39,448 nt of DNA from an uncultured Gammaproteobacteria bacterium (GTDB lineage Bacteria > Patescibacteriota > Patescibacteriia > Magasanikbacterales > JBBTQS01): NCBI GenBank assembly GCA_964554065.1, contig CAZKMQ010000002.1, positions 1 to 39,448 on the forward strand, read 5' to 3'. This document shows positions 1,612-24,245 of the stretch, piece after piece. Made by a program: the position numbers and the translations under genes. Numbering within the stretch: the first letter of the stretch is position 1; the number at the start of each line of letters is the position of its first letter. The notes under the pieces were generated by a model that saw only the letters and a program-made list of their open reading frames with translations, ran no database searches and was not told where the DNA came from.

Positions 1612-1718
1612 CAGAGTGAGTAACGTGTAGAGGAGGGAACGCTTCAATTTGGACTGGCTTAAAATATATATTCGGCCTTAAGTCCATTGTGCAGCTCTTC
1701 TGCACTTTACTCGCTCTG
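1612..1718 (+). ncRNA. Structured 5' leader element, copy 1 (long irregular hairpin, unassigned family)
   Basis: P1 is about 24 bp (1612-1635 with 1695-1718; one mismatch, three G-U pairs). P2 is GGACU/AGUCC (1651-1655 with 1681-1685). P3 is GGC(U)/(G)GCC, capped by a 14-nt loop UAAAAUAUAUAUUC. It is homologous to 2578-2677 with compensatory changes. Confidence 0.65.
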
Positions 1719-1774
1719 ATTGTCCGAACGTTTCGGCATGAAGATTGAGAATACGCTCTTCCTTGGAGGGAAAA

Positions 1775-2440
1775 ATGAGCGCAGGATTCGATAGTAACTT
1801 CGCCCAGAACAGCAACCCCAAGACCAGCCGTGAGGACGGCGAGAAAGATGTCTTCGTCCCGGCCACTGTGGTCAAGGTAGAGGATGTGAAGCTGCGCCAG
1901 GCGCGGCTGGAGCGGATCGCAAGCGATCCGCGGTTCAAGAAGGAGTCGAAGTCGCAGAAAGAGCGCTTCACGCCGGAGTTCGAGATGTACATCTGCACCC
2001 GAGTTGGGTGCGGAACCAGCATGTCTCCGGCACAGGCGCTAGTGCCAGACCGGAGTGTATTCAGCAAGGAGTTGGGCAAGGAGAAGTTCTTGACCGATGA
2101 CCTGAAGGTGCTCGCGGTCTGCGGTCGCAGATGCGTCGAGCTCAAGTACGGACCAGATTGCAGGTCTTACCGCCACAACCTGGTCTATCGGCAGCTGCTC
2201 TCTGATCAGCAGCGCGACTACGAGCGCAAGCAGCGCAGAGCGCAGTATTTCCCGCGGTCGGAGCGTAAGGCTCCGGGCGCAAAGACCAAGGGCGCCTTCG
2301 GCAACGTCCAGAACTCCGGCTCGGATTCGTACCGGGCCAAGAAGGCGGCGAAGCGGGCTGCCTCCAAGGAGCTTCGCGACGGCATGAAGGGCAGCGAGAA
2401 CGGTCAGACCGGTGCTGACCGCGCTGGCAAGAAGAAGTAG
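1775..2440 (+). CDS. GC-rich hypothetical protein with a Cys4 zinc-ribbon-like module and a Lys/Arg-rich C-terminal tail (paralog A)
   Basis: The ATG at 1775 follows GGAGGG by 4 nt; the ORF-track start at 1745 is a TTG with no SD. Motifs are C-x4-C (CTRVGC) and, about 35 aa later, LTDDLKVLAVCGRRC. The tail is basic (KKAAKRAASK...GKKK). A sampled line is 62% GC, and long spurious antisense ORFs fit the high GC. Confidence 0.7.
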   Translation: MSAGFDSNFAQNSNPKTSREDGEKDVFVPATVVKVEDVKLRQARLERIASDPRFKKESKSQKERFTPEFEMYICTRVGCGTSMSPAQALVPDRSVFSKELGKEKFLTDDLKVLAVCGRRCVELKYGPDCRSYRHNLVYRQLLSDQQRDYERKQRRAQYFPRSERKAPGAKTKGAFGNVQNSGSDSYRAKKAAKRAASKELRDGMKGSENGQTGADRAGKKK

Positions 2441-2537
2441 CCGACTTCTTCGCCAAGTCCTAGCCCACGCTAGGCAAACCAACGGAACGGGGTGATGATG
2501 CAACGCGTGTCACCCCAATCCAACTGATCAGTTCACT

Positions 2538-2566
2538 TTGTGGAATGATCTGAGGATTTTTACAAT
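2538..2566 (+). promoter_or_regulatory. Promoter candidate (TTGTGG-N17-TACAAT)
   Basis: The -10 TACAAT at 2561-2566 has 17-nt spacing to a weak -35. The predicted start, around 2573, lies immediately 5' of leader copy 2. Confidence 0.5.
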
Positions 2567-2577
2567 AAATACTCTAT

Positions 2578-2677
2578 CAGAGTGAGGAATGTGAGAGGAG
2601 GGCACACATAGAGATAGGCTTAAAATCTAATTTCGGCCTTTAAATCTCGACCAACTTCTCCCACATTCCTCACTCTG
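2578..2677 (+). ncRNA. Structured 5' leader element, copy 2
   Basis: P1 is 23 bp (2578-2600 with 2655-2677; one mismatch, one G-U pair). P2 is GAGAU/AUCUC (2611-2615 with 2644-2648). P3 is AGGC(U)/(G)GCCU, capped by a 14-nt loop UAAAAUCUAAUUUC. Blocks shared with copy 1 are CAGAGUGAG, AGAGGAGGG, GGCUUAAAAU, UUCGGCCUU and CUCUGAUU. Confidence 0.65.
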
Positions 2678-2747
2678 ATTCGTTATGTGTTTACGCACGT
2701 GATGAAAAAGAGTAAAATCTAGAACAGTTCCTAGGAGGGATGTTCAC

Positions 2748-4076
2748 ATGTCTGACTCGAAAGAGAAAGACCGTCGGCCTCGTCGTCCTCGACAAGGTCA
2801 GAGTAGCGGTGGTAACATCGCATCGTCAATTGCAGGCTGGCAGTTCCAAGGGACTGATCCAGCAGGAGTGAACCTGCTCGAGCAGGTTCGCGAGAATCTT
2901 CGTGCGCGGGAGGAGTCTGAATCGGAGGAGCAGGAAAATCGTGCTCCGTTCAAGGTGCAGCCGCCGGAGATGGTGGAGTGCACAATGGATGATTGCGACA
3001 AGGAAGGTCCTTTTCTTTTCCGCAAGGCCTCCACTCCGAGAACTGACAAGATCGCCTTGTTCCTTCACAAGGACGAAAGCGATCTGACCGCTGATGACAT
3101 CCTTACCGTGGCTACGTGTCGTCGGTGTGGTCGTCGTTCCAAGAACACGTCGCCCATCGTGACCGTCTGGCGCATTGTCGTCGGGTGTATCGGTGACGAG
3201 GAGGGTTTCAGGCCTCGGCGGGGGAAGGATTCGCAAGTCAAGACTCGCAAGCCGAGTCGGGCAGAGCAAATCCGTCAGCAGAAGCTGGAAGAAGGCGGAA
3301 AGGAATGTGGTCAGAAAGGGTGTCAGTTCGTACTGATGCCTGATCAGGTTCGGTTCCCCAGTGATCTTGGAGAGCTGGCATCAGTTGCTGGCGTCGAGGT
3401 TGGGGAGTTGGGCTGCGATCACGTCTTTGACTTGATTCGGTGCAAGAAGCACTTCAAGCCGACCTGGGGTATGGACTTTCGCAGCAAAAGCGTGACTGAT
3501 TACCAGAGTACCAAGGATGGTATTCTGGCGGCACGTGAGTTGGTTGAGATCGAGGCTCAGGAAGAGCTCGCGGAGTGTGAGCAGCAGGCCAAGGCCAAGG
3601 AGGCTCGGCTTGCCAAGAAGAAGGAGCTTCGTGAGGCTCGACTTGCTAGCAAAGCGTCTGCTCCTAAGAAGGCAGATGCTGATGCTCATCGCAAGACTAA
3701 GGGGCGTCGTGCTTCCACCAAGAAGCGCAGTTCTCGTCCGCGATCTTCTGGTGGTGACAAGGGGGGTGGCTCTCGTCACTCTTCCGGAAAGGCGCATCAA
3801 GCACCTAGCTTGAGCTCATCGCAGCGAAGTGATGACGAGCGACAGCCGAGAATCTGGATCACGAAGGCTTCGCAGCCTGTGGTCACGAAGATCTCAGGTC
3901 TTTCGAAGATCGCCATGGAGATCAGCTCCATGAGTCTGGATACTGATGACCTGAGTCAGGAAAGCGCAGATGCGCTGGCTTGGGCAAAGATGTTCGTCTT
4001 GGCGGAGAAGTTCGGAAGCAGCACGAAGAAGCTGCATCCGCCACAGATGGTCGTCGAAATGCTCACCGTCAACTAA
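2748..4076 (+). CDS. GC-rich hypothetical protein with two Cys-rich zinc-ribbon-like modules, a charged coiled-coil and a basic low-complexity region (paralog B)
   Basis: AGGAGGG lies 8 nt upstream of the ATG. Module 1 is CTMDDC...LTADDILTVATCRRC, which aligns with paralog A. Module 2 is CGQKGC...CDHVFDLIRCKKH. The middle is K/R/E-rich (AKAKEARLAKKKELREARL, KTKGRRASTKKRSSRPRSSGG). Confidence 0.7.
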   Translation: MSDSKEKDRRPRRPRQGQSSGGNIASSIAGWQFQGTDPAGVNLLEQVRENLRAREESESEEQENRAPFKVQPPEMVECTMDDCDKEGPFLFRKASTPRTDKIALFLHKDESDLTADDILTVATCRRCGRRSKNTSPIVTVWRIVVGCIGDEEGFRPRRGKDSQVKTRKPSRAEQIRQQKLEEGGKECGQKGCQFVLMPDQVRFPSDLGELASVAGVEVGELGCDHVFDLIRCKKHFKPTWGMDFRSKSVTDYQSTKDGILAARELVEIEAQEELAECEQQAKAKEARLAKKKELREARLASKASAPKKADADAHRKTKGRRASTKKRSSRPRSSGGDKGGGSRHSSGKAHQAPSLSSSQRSDDERQPRIWITKASQPVVTKISGLSKIAMEISSMSLDTDDLSQESADALAWAKMFVLAEKFGSSTKKLHPPQMVVEMLTVN

Positions 4077-4079
4077 ATT

Positions 4080-4650
4080 CCTCACTAACGTGAGGTCCTT
4101 ACATCATGTTCTGTGGTGTAAGGGGATGGGGTGGCTTAGTTAACAGCTAAGTCACTCCCGCCCAATTCTATTCATCGCTCAATTTTCAAACTTTTCACAG
4201 AGCGGTGATTAGATAGGGTGTCATCAGATGCTCTACTGTCTATACTTTTGACAAAGGGCTTACCAGCCTGGTTTTACAAAGGGTGCGTACCGGAAAAATC
4301 TTTCAGTACATATGACAGACATGACGTTAAGTAAAAGACGTCACTGGATCGTTCTTGCAGCCGACAGCATTGCAATGTCAGTCTTATAAAAGCCACGAAG
4401 TGGTCAGCTGGCGGTGTGAATGGAAGATTGTGAAAACCTCATTTTAAGAGGGGATTAACAATCGGAAACCGGCGCCTGTATGCAGGCAGCAATGTCAAGA
4501 CGAAAAAACAAACAGGGGAGGATCGCTGGATTGCTCTGCATTCCAAACACTCCCTATCCCACAGCAAGACAAGCGCACATTATATCCCCACTCTCTCTTG
4601 TCTTGCTATGGGAGACAATAAATCGGTCGTATGGCCGGTTTTTTGTTTGA
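4080..4650 (+). other. ORF-free, hairpin-rich region ending in an intrinsic terminator (candidate ncRNA or long structured 3' UTR)
   Basis: The six-frame track has no ORF of 60 aa or more between 4086 and 4722. Hairpins seen by eye include 4080-4095, a 12-bp stem around 4127-4157, a 15-bp stem ccacagcaagacaag/cttgtcttgctatgg(g) around 4559-4612, and a terminator at 4622-4648. Confidence 0.35.
4622..4648 (+). terminator. Intrinsic terminator
   Basis: The stem is atcggtc/ggccggt (7 bp, two G-U pairs) with loop gtat, followed by ttttttgttt. Confidence 0.6.
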
Positions 4651-4663
4651 AAAAAATTTGCTA

Positions 4664-4692
4664 TTGCATAAAAACCCATATATTTGTATACT
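4664..4692 (+). promoter_or_regulatory. Promoter (TTGCAT-N17-TATACT) for the HU gene
   Basis: Hexamers and spacing were read directly. The site lies 38 nt upstream of the ATG at 4730. Confidence 0.55.
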
Positions 4693-4729
4693 TTTGTCAC
4701 ATTGTTAATAACCCTTAAGCTATCATACT

Positions 4730-8811: not shown

Positions 8812-9024
8812 ACGCGTGTGCGTATTTCTAAGATGCAAATATGCGGACCAATGGTCCGTGCGTGATCTAGTGAGTTTTTCCCCGAGAAATCAGCATAATG
8901 GGGAACAAAGGAGTTAAAGTCAAACTATCTCTACACATCGATTCTTCCGCAAACAACAGCACTCAGAAATACCAGTTATGTTTATAAGAATATAGTATGC
9001 TCAGCATACCGTATTTGGGTGAGG

Positions 9025-9053
9025 TTGACAAGAGTATCCACATATGGTAGGCT
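9025..9053 (+). promoter_or_regulatory. Promoter candidate (TTGACA-N17-TAGGCT)
   Basis: The -35 is perfect and the -10 is weak. An alternative -10, TACAAT, lies at about 9075-9080. Confidence 0.4.
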
Positions 9054-9120: not shown

Positions 9121-9456
9121 TTGAGTAATCAAAGTAGTAATTCTGGACACGCGATGTGTGTCAAATGCAAGCGGGAATATCCCATTCCTGCGTGTGTTAC
9201 CTCGTCCATTGATTCCATGGAGCGCGCCAAGTCTCGCAGGGGAGAGCTCGGTGCACTGACTATGGAGGATGTGGTCAAGTATCATGTTCATTGTGGTAGA
9301 GATTCACGGCATGTTGTCGGAGAGATCCACCAGCTTCGCACAGTAATGAGTCAGATAAGCCGTATTTCGCGGCGCAAGTCTGGCGTTACCACGCGCAAAG
9401 CATCCACTGCAAGGACTCGCGGTGGCCGAAAAGATCGTACGCGTACATACGCGTAG
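9121..9456 (+). CDS. GC-rich small Cys-rich protein with an Arg-rich tail (paralog C of the 1775/2748 family)
   Basis: A TTG start follows AGGAGGGG by 5 nt; an in-frame ATG lies at 9154. The motifs are CVKCKREYPIPAC...LTMEDVVKYHVHCGRDSRH, which align with LTADDILTVATCRRCGRR and LTDDLKVLAVCGRRC. The tail is RRKSGVTTRKASTARTRGGRKDRTRT. A sampled line is 58% GC. Confidence 0.6.
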   Translation: MSNQSSNSGHAMCVKCKREYPIPACVTSSIDSMERAKSRRGELGALTMEDVVKYHVHCGRDSRHVVGEIHQLRTVMSQISRISRRKSGVTTRKASTARTRGGRKDRTRTYA

Positions 9457-13800: not shown

Positions 13801-13846
13801 TTGTCAAGCTATTGTACTTGACAAACAATCAAAAATTTGCTAGTGT
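13801..13846 (+). promoter_or_regulatory. Promoter (TTGACA-N17-TAGTGT) embedded in an 8-bp perfect inverted repeat
   Basis: The inverted repeat is ttgtcaag (13801-13808) and cttgacaa (13817-13824), and it overlaps the -35 at 13818-13823. Confidence 0.45.
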
Positions 13847-13999: not shown

Positions 14000-15379
14000 A
14001 TGACTGTTCGTACCGGTCGTGTAAGTGCCCAGGAGAAAGCGCGTCGCGAACGCGTTGCAGGAAGTCTTGCTGGTAAGTTCGGCAAAGCTACTGACATGAT
14101 TCTCCAGGGAAAGCGTACACCTGATCAAGCAAAAGTACTGGAGCGAGCGCTACAAGCGTTTCGTGATGGTCAGCTTGTGGGTGTTGTGTGTAGAGCGCAA
14201 ACCGCAGATGCAGCACAGCTGCAGCCAGTATTGTCACTTCTTGTGGCAGACTCGGCTATGCCTGATGATCTGAAGAAGTACTTCCGCCAACGTGGTGTGC
14301 GGTACATCGGTGAGATCTACAAGCTGATCTGGGATAATCGCGGTAAGGGCATGCGTGAGCGTCGTGAGCAAGTCTTTGACTTTCTTAAGTTGACGCTTGG
14401 TTTGCCAGAACAAGTGAACGTGGATGTGATGTGGCGGCCCCCATACTGGGACGATGCAGGATTCCTCGCTTTGCTGAACCAGCCTGTGGGCGCAGTGGTG
14501 ACTGATACTGGTTATTACGATCGCGGCAAGCATGGTAGAGGAAGCTATCGTCCAGGTCATCGTTGGATGTATGCTAGAAAAACCCGGATGCGTTTTCTGC
14601 ATGAAAAGGGTATTCACTACGCTGGTGACTATCTGCGGTCTGGTCGTGTTCCTGAACCTGGTTCCCATGGTACTACTCTGGGTGACTGGGGTATGGGATC
14701 GATTAAGAACAAGCAGTCCACCTTGCAGAAGAACAGTGGGTTGTGGGCTGCTGCGCTTGTGCCACTGGACTGGTCTGCTCCTAAGGAGATTCCGTCTGAG
14801 TGGGTGGAAGAGCTGCTGCTGATCGATCAAGAGATGGCAGAAGACGAAGCTCGTGCTTTAGAGCGTGAGCAAGAAGCACAGCGCAAGCATGAAGAGCAGT
14901 ACAATCTTGAAGAGCGTAAGCGCCGGGTGTTTGAAAAATCTCACGGATTGATTTATGCATTTCGAGCGTCTTTGGCTTCTCCTACTGACGTTTATGAGTA
15001 TCTAAGGGGGTTGAATCTCTTTCGGTCGGTGGATGAGCTCGAGATTTCTGTGCGTAACTCCATCACTTTGCGTAACGCCAGAATTCGTTTTGTTGGTGAG
15101 CTGGTCTGTAGAACTGAAGCGGAGTATCTCAGGTTCAAGAATTCTGGTAGGAAGTCCTTGAAGGAGATCAGGGAAGCTCTTGCAGAGATGGGGTTGTCCT
15201 TGGGGATGTTCCAGGATCCGATTTCGCTGGGTTACCTTAATGCGGTTCTGAGTGTTTGCAAAACAGGTGTTTCATCTGCGCAACAAGACTACGAGTTGAT
15301 CAAGGGTGCTCTTATCAAGCATAGAGCGGCGACAAATCCTGATCCACTGGCTGAAGCGTGGGAGGACGCTGAAGAGTAG
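14000..15379 (+). CDS. GC-rich hypothetical protein with a C-terminal RNA polymerase alpha-subunit CTD-like (helix-hairpin-helix) domain
   Basis: GAGGTG is the SD. The C-terminal segment [60 protein letters not shown] matches the RpoA CTD pattern (LELSVRxxNCLKxxxIxxIGDLxxxTExELLxxxNxGKKSLxEIKxxLxxxGLSLG). A sampled line is 57% GC. Confidence 0.65.
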
Positions 15380-23569: not shown

Positions 23570-23590
23570 ATTTGACCGATCTGATACTAT
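23562..23590 (+). promoter_or_regulatory. Promoter (TTGACT-N17-TACTAT) for rplJL
   Basis: Hexamers and spacing were read directly. The site overlaps the end of pyrH. Confidence 0.5.
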
Positions 23591-23595
23591 ATTTC

Positions 23596-23696
23596 CATCG
23601 CCACAGACAGCAGGCAATTAATAAGACCTGCCGAGGTATAAGCTCCCGCTTTAATATATTGGGATAGGTCGGCTTTATCGATAACTGTGGCAGATG
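23596..23696 (+). promoter_or_regulatory. Candidate L10(L12) ribosomal-protein leader structure
   Basis: A long-range closing stem pairs catc-g-ccacag (23596-23606) with ctgtgg-c-agatg (23685-23696). An internal hairpin is gcagg...cctgc. The position directly 5' of rplJ matches the known autoregulatory leader location. Confidence 0.35.
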
Positions 23697-23717
23697 TGTC
23701 ATAGTTTTTTGTTTTTT

Positions 23718-24245
23718 ATGGCTAAAACACGACAACAAAAAGAAGAGGCAGTACGTGATCTTACAGATACTATTAAAAAAAGCAAGGCAGCAGTCTTTGC
23801 ATCGTTTAGTGGTGTTACTGTAGGGGATGCGCAAACATTGCGTCGCGACTGTCGCAAAGAAGATGTACAATACTTGGTTGCAAAAAAGACCATCATGAAT
23901 TTGGCGTTTAAAAACGCTGGGTACAGTGATGTGGATACCAAACCATTTGAGGGTAATGTTGCAGTTGCCTTTGGTATGGGAGACGAGGTTGCATCAGCAA
24001 AAACATTACACACATTTGCCAAAGCGCACGAAGGGTTCACCATCTTGGGTGGAATTCTTGAAGGGCGCTATATTAACGCTGACGAAGTGAACGCACTTGC
24101 GAAACTTCCAAGTCGTGATGAGCTTTTGGCAAAACTGGTTGGATCTATTGCAGCTCCAATGTCAGGATTTGTAAATGTGTTAGCTGGTGTGCCACGCAAT
24201 TTTGTACAGGTATTATCTGCAATTAAAGATGCCAAAGAGGCATAA
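23718..24245 (+). CDS. rplJ: 50S ribosomal protein L10
   Basis: The start is at [12 protein letters not shown]. The L10 sequence is typical and the gene lies immediately upstream of rplL. Confidence 0.9.

Follow-up and report, generated by a model that had tools for sequence, protein, structure and literature searches.

The window analysed here is the whole of a 39,448-nucleotide (nt) stretch of DNA, contig CAZKMQ010000002.1, and the elements in question are two homologous stem-loops, copy 1 and copy 2, which lie in the leaders of two neighbouring orphan genes, g1 and g2. An earlier reading made from the letters of the window (the sequence-only reading) had described two structured RNA elements in the same orientation, at 1612-1718 and 2578-2677, upstream of tandem paralogous genes in a genome of the candidate phyla radiation (CPR). 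The sequence at these coordinates is as described, and comparison of the PyrE-PyrF fusion protein, which is at most 55-57% identical to other proteins, supports the view that the host is a bacterium of the Patescibacteria (CPR). The neighbours of the two orphan genes are core genes, namely pyrE-pyrF and the genes for HU, RNase Y, TruB, initiation factor IF-2 and leucyl-tRNA synthetase (LeuRS). The hairpins and the genes behind them are as follows.

1610-1721, + strand: hairpin copy 1, from RNAfold and the covariance model R1 (114.5 bits)
1775-2440, + strand: g1, orphan gene of 221 amino acids; basic product (lysine plus arginine 22%) with cysteines 74/79/116/120/129; G+C content at third codon positions (GC3) 0.80
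2576-2680, + strand: hairpin copy 2 (inverted repeat I1), from RNAfold and R1 (96.9 bits)
2748-4076, + strand: g2, orphan gene of 442 amino acids; cysteine pairs 78/83/124/127 and 187/192/223/232; GC3 0.61

Structure and conservation of the two stem-loops

RNAfold predicts one long hairpin for each copy, with a free energy of -49.0 kcal/mol for copy 1 (1612-1718; z -8.1) and -46.4 kcal/mol for copy 2 (2578-2677; z -9.0); none of 200 dinucleotide shuffles folded as stably as either. Both copies have the same layout, consisting of a basal helix P1, an asymmetric internal loop, a P2 helix of 5-6 base pairs (bp), a UUA or UUAA bulge, a P3 helix (GGCU/GGCC, invariant between the copies) and an A/U-rich loop. 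The sequence-only reading had given this layout with a P1 of 23-24 bp; P1 is counted here as 22-23 pairs with one mismatch in both copies, and the flanks can supply one further U-A pair. The hairpin is an independent domain in the folds of both full leaders, in all constructs. The opposite strand of copy 1 folds to only -35.4 kcal/mol. The parts of each hairpin, all on the + strand, are listed here.

1611-1635 with 1695-1719: P1 of copy 1
1650-1655 with 1681-1686: P2 of copy 1
1656-1659 with 1674-1677: P3 of copy 1
1636-1649 (5' side) and 1687-1694 (3' side): internal loop of copy 1
1660-1673: A/U-rich loop of copy 1
1678-1680: UUA bulge of copy 1
2577-2600 with 2655-2678: P1 of copy 2
2611-2615 with 2644-2648: P2 of copy 2, with an extra pair A2616-U2639
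2617-2620 with 2635-2638: P3 of copy 2
2601-2610 (5' side) and 2649-2654 (3' side): internal loop of copy 2
2621-2634: loop of copy 2
2640-2643: UUAA bulge of copy 2
1629-1637 (copy 1) and 2594-2602 (copy 2): purine tract AGAGGAGGG, resembling a Shine-Dalgarno (SD) site, in the 5' arm of P1, identical in both
1656-1680 (copy 1) and 2617-2643 (copy 2): apical module GGCUUAAAAU..UA..UUCGGCCUU followed by A, conserved in sequence

When the two hairpins are aligned, 80 of 104 positions are identical (z 14.5), and the five blocks that had been picked out as conserved (CAGAGUGAG, AGAGGAGGG, GGCUUAAAAU, UUCGGCCUU and CUCUGAUU) are all exact in both copies. The sequence-conserved parts are three: the base of P1, where the terminal 10-11 bp of the stem are invariant; the purine tract AGAGGAGGG; and the apical GGCUU..UUCGGCC module, in which 22 of 25 ungapped columns are identical. 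In the window the apical motif has these two occurrences, where 0.00 are expected. The pair table also bears out the pairing of the SD-like tract in the 5' arm of P1 with a CU-rich 3' arm. The tract does not vary, but the sequence it pairs with does, by way of wobble pairs: G-C/G-U changes separate CUCUUCU in copy 1 from CUUCUCC in copy 2.

Pairs were counted on a hand-made, structure-guided alignment of the two copies with 36 ungapped pairs, of which 26 never vary. Among the ten variable pairs four are double compensatory changes, three are one-sided changes by way of a G-U wobble and three are unpaired in one copy. Three of the double changes lie in the 5-bp P2, which reads GGACU/AGUCC in copy 1 and GAGAU/AUCUC in copy 2, and the fourth is in P1, at column 10 (U-A in copy 1, G-C in copy 2); all four had been proposed by the sequence-only reading and all are present in the pair table. 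Every one of the six changed columns on the 5' side of the stem has its partner among the ten changed columns on the 3' side (hypergeometric P 1.1e-4). Sliding the partners by 1-3 columns lowers pairing from 96% to 30-47%, and all double changes are lost; a swap-shuffle control for covariation cannot reach significance with two sequences (44/500). It is clear that base pairing is preserved through correlated substitutions. Furthermore, the + strand has five G-U cells against one A-C cell, and this excess, together with the weaker fold of the - strand, lends modest support to an RNA transcribed in the coding direction. The apex is invariant while the P2 helix below it has been rebuilt, as would be expected if the apex were specifically recognised. 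What stands in the two leaders is a real structural unit, and a strand-specific one.

Correlated changes in two arms are also what templated correction of a quasi-palindrome predicts, and the element could be one of DNA: either a site for recombination or binding that folds as single-stranded DNA, as attC sites do, or a quasi-palindrome kept symmetric by templated repair and with no function as RNA. Imperfect palindromes of about 100 nt in the same orientation do alternate here with orphan genes of foreign composition, as in cassette arrays. However, the borders lack attC core sites (RYYYAAC / GTTRRRY), neither an integrase nor any other recombinase is encoded close by (the adjacent genes being pyrE-pyrF, HU and RNase Y), g2 is not followed by a third copy, and the pairing is strand-asymmetric, with G-U pairs favouring the + strand, a bias that templated correction leaves unexplained. 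A DNA-level element is thus considered very improbable. An integron attC site in particular was rejected, the ends of the hairpin (TCAGAGTGAG ... CTCACTCTGA) being without core sites and the neighbours without an integrase.

Outside the hairpin the two copies resemble each other little. The 60 nt upstream (z 0.3) and the spacers that separate hairpin from SD (z 1.1) match no better than shuffled sequence, the 30 nt upstream of the hairpins reach only z 1.8, and the only conserved sequence is a 13-nt SD context, TTCCTNGGAGGGA. Since similarity is restricted to the hairpin and the flanks behave like shuffles, the homologous unit is the hairpin, whose borders are sharp and coincide with the two ends of the inverted repeat. 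Neither the adjacent spacers nor the downstream proteins, which are barely alignable, are conserved nearly as well.

Such borders bring in the main rival explanation, in which a palindromic repeat of about 105 bp, similar to a miniature inverted-repeat transposable element (MITE), was inserted or copied upstream of two genes and is merely co-transcribed with them, any effects on expression being secondary. The hairpin is a discrete unit whose homology starts and stops at its terminal inverted repeats (z 14.5 against 0.3-1.1 in the flanks), and this keeps a repeat-element origin alive. The invariance of the terminal 10-11 bp would fit such an origin, as would the composition of the element, which is AT-rich like the host and adjoins genes of alien composition. 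In its size and full-length palindrome the element recalls the Correia repeats of Neisseria and the ERIC repeats of enterobacteria which, with BOX repeats, are imperfect palindromes of about 100-150 bp with sharp borders, co-transcribed and forming long RNA hairpins that nucleases can cleave. Those families, however, have tens to hundreds of dispersed copies in either orientation, with target-site duplications. The sequence-only reading had named scattered copies with target-site duplications as the mark of a MITE, and within the 39 kb neither was found: there are two copies, both on the + strand, no scattered copies or solo terminal repeats, and no target-site duplication consistent in any register (flanking dinucleotides TT/AT in copy 1, AT/AT in copy 2). 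The copies are instead locked in position, in the same orientation and at near-equal distances from a common SD context, before adjacent and probably paralogous genes. Transposition does not require the apex to be the best conserved part, as it is here, or three pairs of the inner helix P2 to be compensated, and the G-U bias points to selection at the level of RNA. A MITE-like repeat is judged unlikely, if less so than the other alternatives considered.

Leader context and the switch model

The signals placed around the hairpins are listed below.

1454-1482, + strand: strong sigma-70-like promoter, TTGACA-17 nt-TATAGT with a TG element (11/12 match)
1567-1596, + strand: weak promoter-like boxes before copy 1, TTGTAT-18 nt-TATACA, a putative reading below the scan threshold
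1759-1771, + strand: SD context of g1, TTCCTTGGAGGGA / UUCCUUGGAGGGA, which can form a small local UUCCU/AGGGA hairpin
2538-2566, + strand: weak candidate promoter, TTGTGG-17 nt-TACAAT, read by eye and below the scan threshold
2728-2740, + strand: SD context of g2, TTCCTAGGAGGGA / UUCCUAGGAGGGA, with a local SD hairpin closed by GAACA/UGUUC

The strong promoter places copy 1 within a transcript whose leader is about 285 nt long, and the whole g1 leader is highly structured (z -8.2). The weak candidate at 2538-2566 would, if used, put the 5' end of the g2 transcript 3-5 nt upstream of hairpin 2. Both hairpins have the same orientation and lie at a similar distance from the ATG (56 and 70 nt, a correction of the 57 and 71 nt given earlier), and each stands upstream of a conserved strong SD; the two conserved SD contexts are as the sequence-only reading had given them. 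Both g1 and g2 have strong GGAGG SDs, and most genes of the window have no SD.

The SD-like arm of P1 had suggested a translational switch. In such a model P1 would open when a protein or ligand binds, and either the freed CU-rich arm would capture the SD or the decoy SD would capture ribosomes. An invariant AGAGGAGGG paired to a CU-rich arm is what this model would need, strong SDs are unusual in this genome, and the folds of two copy 2 constructs (starting at 2602 and 2655) predict that the 3' arm, once freed, pairs with the SD region. Partition-function folds were calculated for both leaders with the hairpin intact, with its 5' arm removed, with the 3' arm only and with the hairpin deleted. 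Across all of these forms the mean unpaired probability from SD to AUG stayed within 0.55-0.59 in copy 1 and within 0.35-0.37 in copy 2. The predicted accessibility of the SD is therefore the same whatever the state of the hairpin, and a switch between SD and anti-SD is not supported. Furthermore, the folds of copy 1 do not predict that its 3' arm captures the SD, and the element is a single unbranched hairpin with no obvious ligand pocket. Since a hairpin of -46 to -49 kcal/mol would form before the SD is transcribed, opening of P1 unaided or driven by a ligand is implausible and would need an active factor. The switch model is therefore improbable, and the hairpin would act as a static cis-acting leader element rather than as a conformational switch.

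Other kinds of leader element were considered and rejected. A riboswitch resembles the element in being a conserved, structured 5' leader with covarying helices; it differs in that the hairpin here is unbranched, with no multi-helix junction, pocket or pseudoknot, no terminator or other expression platform and an SD whose accessibility is independent of the hairpin, and is linked only to two orphan genes of one organism. The hairpin is far too stable for an RNA thermometer, and no U-tract follows it as would be expected of a terminator or attenuator. A conserved small open reading frame (ORF) in the hairpin or spacer was rejected because frames and lengths differ between the copies.

Several other features of the leaders and start sites were observed. 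Short upstream ORFs are present in the spacers (1738-1794 and 2702-2722), one of which, MKIENTLFLGGKNERRIR, overlaps the g1 start and the other, MKKSKI, precedes g2; neither has its own SD and the two agree in neither frame nor length, so they are unlikely to be meaningful. Upstream of copy 1 the g1 leader (1490-1611) holds a 17-bp hairpin at 1556-1608 and a small hairpin at 1536-1555, and in the predicted fold a purine tract, GAGGAGAGAGUG (1517-1528), pairs with the CU-rich stretch just before the true g1 SD; these extra structures have no counterpart before g2. The promoter of g1 is one of three strong look-alikes (family D7; ACTTGACAA, about 17 nt, TATGNTA), at 1452-1478, 9023-9049 and 13816-13842, all of which precede long leaders and strong SDs, the genes being g1, a 111-amino-acid ORF at 9121 and an ORF at 14000 that contains the C-terminal domain of RpoA. 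Strong SDs are found at few genes of the window only (g1, g2, 6850, 9121 and 14000). At several other starts (for example 10875, 18437, 20505 and 36384) the ATG follows a -10-like box by 7-10 nt, so that the mRNAs may be leaderless.

Searches for relatives of the element and its genes

The sequence-only reading had recognised no known family in the element, and the comparison with Rfam agrees. At gathering thresholds, a search of the window with Rfam 15 returned no family at the hairpins, the sole match in the window being an L10 leader elsewhere; a permissive search of 1360-2800 gave generic hairpin noise, the best matches, at 14-23 bits, being to microRNA-precursor models whose gathering scores are 35-245. 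A covariance model, R1, was built from a hand-curated structural alignment of the two copies. In the 39-kb window it found only the two known copies and no third after g2, and in 13 loci, mostly of CPR bacteria, it found nothing. One match from Saccharibacteria (locus L036) has a similar loop but fails R1 and was rejected.

The exact apical motif was also scanned for in genome, viral and metagenome contigs. Among the matches listed there were chance matches only, none of which refolds comparably; the genome-contig scan used a loose pattern of 16 specified bases, covers only the matches listed and is a poor test of that collection. The metagenome scan did not return the known copies, so the source samples are evidently absent from that collection. 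Eight contigs of the same organism were found from several samples, in which both hairpins are identical wherever they are sequenced. Relatives were also approached by synteny through homologs of PyrE-PyrF, the best of which are only 55% identical; their neighbourhoods are unrelated.

Two side observations concern the copies themselves. In two independent assemblies of the locus there are runs of N at or beside the 5' arms of the hairpins, one exactly over the 5' arm of copy 1 (L121, 831-840) and the other just upstream of copy 2 (L120, about 4313-4322), apparently because long inverted repeats break short-read assembly. Just after the g2 stop codon (4076-4097), AAATTCCTCACTAACGTGAGG forms a small hairpin which has the 9-mer TTCCTCACT in common with the 3' arm of copy 2. 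Since R1 does not score it, it is probably a chance or terminator-like hairpin and not a decayed third copy.

Searches for relatives of the two genes were likewise empty. Their three-base periodicity shows that both are coding. A word-indexed search of 5.8e9 clustered proteins found no homolog of g1 or g2, and HMMER with g2 against 1.84e9 representative proteins returned g2 itself and one other protein (P0124), a surface protein of 21 repeats that was rejected as a spurious repeat artefact, leaving no real homolog. Neither gene product matched Pfam (E<=0.1), PHROGs, NCBIfam, PADLOC or the PDB, and tblastn against phages and plasmids and a search of viral contigs gave no match. By these comparisons g1 and g2 are true orphans. 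An AlphaFold model of g1 made with no alignment was unusable (mean predicted local distance difference test score 44). Two RNA partners of known protein families were rejected in the light of these searches: a guide RNA of TnpB/IscB (omega RNA, HEARO), as neither g1 nor g2 has a Pfam match at E<=0.1 and there is no match to the Rfam HEARO family, and a type III toxin-antitoxin RNA, as there is one hairpin per gene with no tandem (about 36-nt) repeats and no PADLOC match.

The codon use of the two genes is alien to the host. Their GC3 values of 0.80 and 0.61 compare with about 0.36 in the other genes of the window; AAG:AAA is 23:2 in g1 and 35:5 in g2 against 180:181 elsewhere in the window, and TTC:TTT is 10:0 and 10:3 against 53:182. 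Both genes use AAG, GAG, TTC and CAG near-exclusively, a bias that the ribosomal-protein genes of the window do not have. This foreign codon use suggests acquisition from a GC-rich source, though the databases searched held no homolog.

The paralogy of g1 and g2, taken as given by the sequence-only reading, is weakly seen. A BLASTP comparison of the two is not significant (E 0.19), but the best alignment is colinear, residues 45-120 with 44-127 (shuffle p about 0.03-0.05), and superposes cysteines 74/79/116/120 of g1 on 78/83/124/127 of g2. From these alignments the two are probably very distant paralogs at best. The label of zinc-ribbon proteins that had been given to them stands in the same way: the cysteine spacing is present, there is no Pfam match, and the label is a reading of the spacing only.

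Candidate role of the leader hairpins and other RNAs of the window

Of the systems compared, the hairpin appears to work most like the leader hairpins that are processed by RNase III or stabilise a message and like protein-binding autoregulatory leaders. The processed hairpins (the rnc and pnp leaders of E. coli and the R sites of phage T7) resemble it in having a stem of at least 20 bp with an internal loop, on the coding strand and 5' of ORFs, in being autonomous domains, and in occurring as homologous copies before successive genes. P1, with its 22-23 pairs and a mismatch, would provide in the transcript the continuous helix of about 20 bp on which such processing depends, and there is a promoter upstream; cleavage is only predicted. 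There is no sequence similarity to RNase III sites, and the host's RNase III is not encoded in the window. RNase III sites do not require a sequence-conserved apical loop.

Stabilising 5' stem-loops (ompA and the aprE and ermC leaders of B. subtilis) are likewise stable hairpins close to an mRNA 5' end, a position that copy 2 would have if the weak promoter at 2538-2566 is in use; RNase Y is encoded in the window. Known 5' stabilisers have short stems, of 10-20 bp, with no sequence specificity. The only strong promoter is about 120 nt away from copy 1, and a stabilising role leaves the conserved apex and the purine tract unexplained. Autoregulatory leaders of the ribosomal-protein type are cis-acting and structured, have a conserved loop and stand, like the hairpins here, upstream of genes for basic, probably nucleic-acid-binding proteins; they differ in that no mimicry of an rRNA site was identified here and the Rfam leader families were not matched. 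The hairpin is a new example of the structured leader stem-loop, a known kind of element, in no curated family.

The preferred explanation is that this lineage-restricted, autonomously folding stem-loop is a functional cis-acting leader RNA of two neighbouring orphan genes. This is given an even chance, and any specific role less than that. Such an RNA is probably a protein-recognised stability or processing element. The leader stem-loops would put g1 and g2 under common post-transcriptional control, through stability or processing, and the invariant apex, judged by the anatomy of the hairpin, may be the recognition site for a trans-acting protein, perhaps the basic, cysteine-rich products themselves.

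Several points weigh against a functional leader RNA. Only two copies are known, both from one organism, and the strain variants, being identical across both hairpins, add no comparative evidence; the scans for the apical motif yielded chance matches only among the matches listed. The correlated changes of the arms can also arise at the DNA level, by the templated correction discussed above. Further, the proposal that the near-perfect 23-bp stem might be a protective 5'-proximal helix that stops decay from the 5' end, a substrate for an enzyme of the RNase III type, or both, is one suggested by anatomy.

A more far-reaching version is that hairpin and cysteine-rich basic proteins form a dedicated RNA-protein module, in which the apex would be an operator or scaffold for autoregulation or for assembly of a ribonucleoprotein, and that a foreign leader-gene cassette is diversifying in Patescibacteria with the RNA kept while the protein diverges. 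The chance of this is slender.

If the hairpins are functional, they would show post-transcriptional control at work in the Patescibacteria, a group in which next to nothing is known of regulation by RNA, and would be a case of an RNA leader far better conserved than the proteins encoded behind it. The alien codon use and strong SDs amid an SD-poor genome offer a possible handle on how reduced genomes express or tame foreign genes. With two copies in one uncultured organism and no wider conservation, the element is for now a local curiosity, by which no general question is resolved or opened.

Two further regions of the window concern RNA. Between g2 and the HU gene is a gene-free stretch of 650 nt on the + strand (4077-4729, core about 4250-4650), in which about 390 nt lie between a promoter-like GTGTCA-17 nt-TATACT (4218-4246) and, downstream, an intrinsic terminator (4620-4641). 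The region between them folds with a z of -4.2 and contains a 17-bp hairpin at 4557-4613. The stretch has no Rfam match even at E<=1 and no tRNA or tmRNA, and is a candidate non-coding RNA of no known family. The only curated RNA family in the window is the Rfam L10 leader RF00557, which lies at 23583-23720 upstream of rplJ-rplL and scores 45.3 bits against a gathering threshold of 44.

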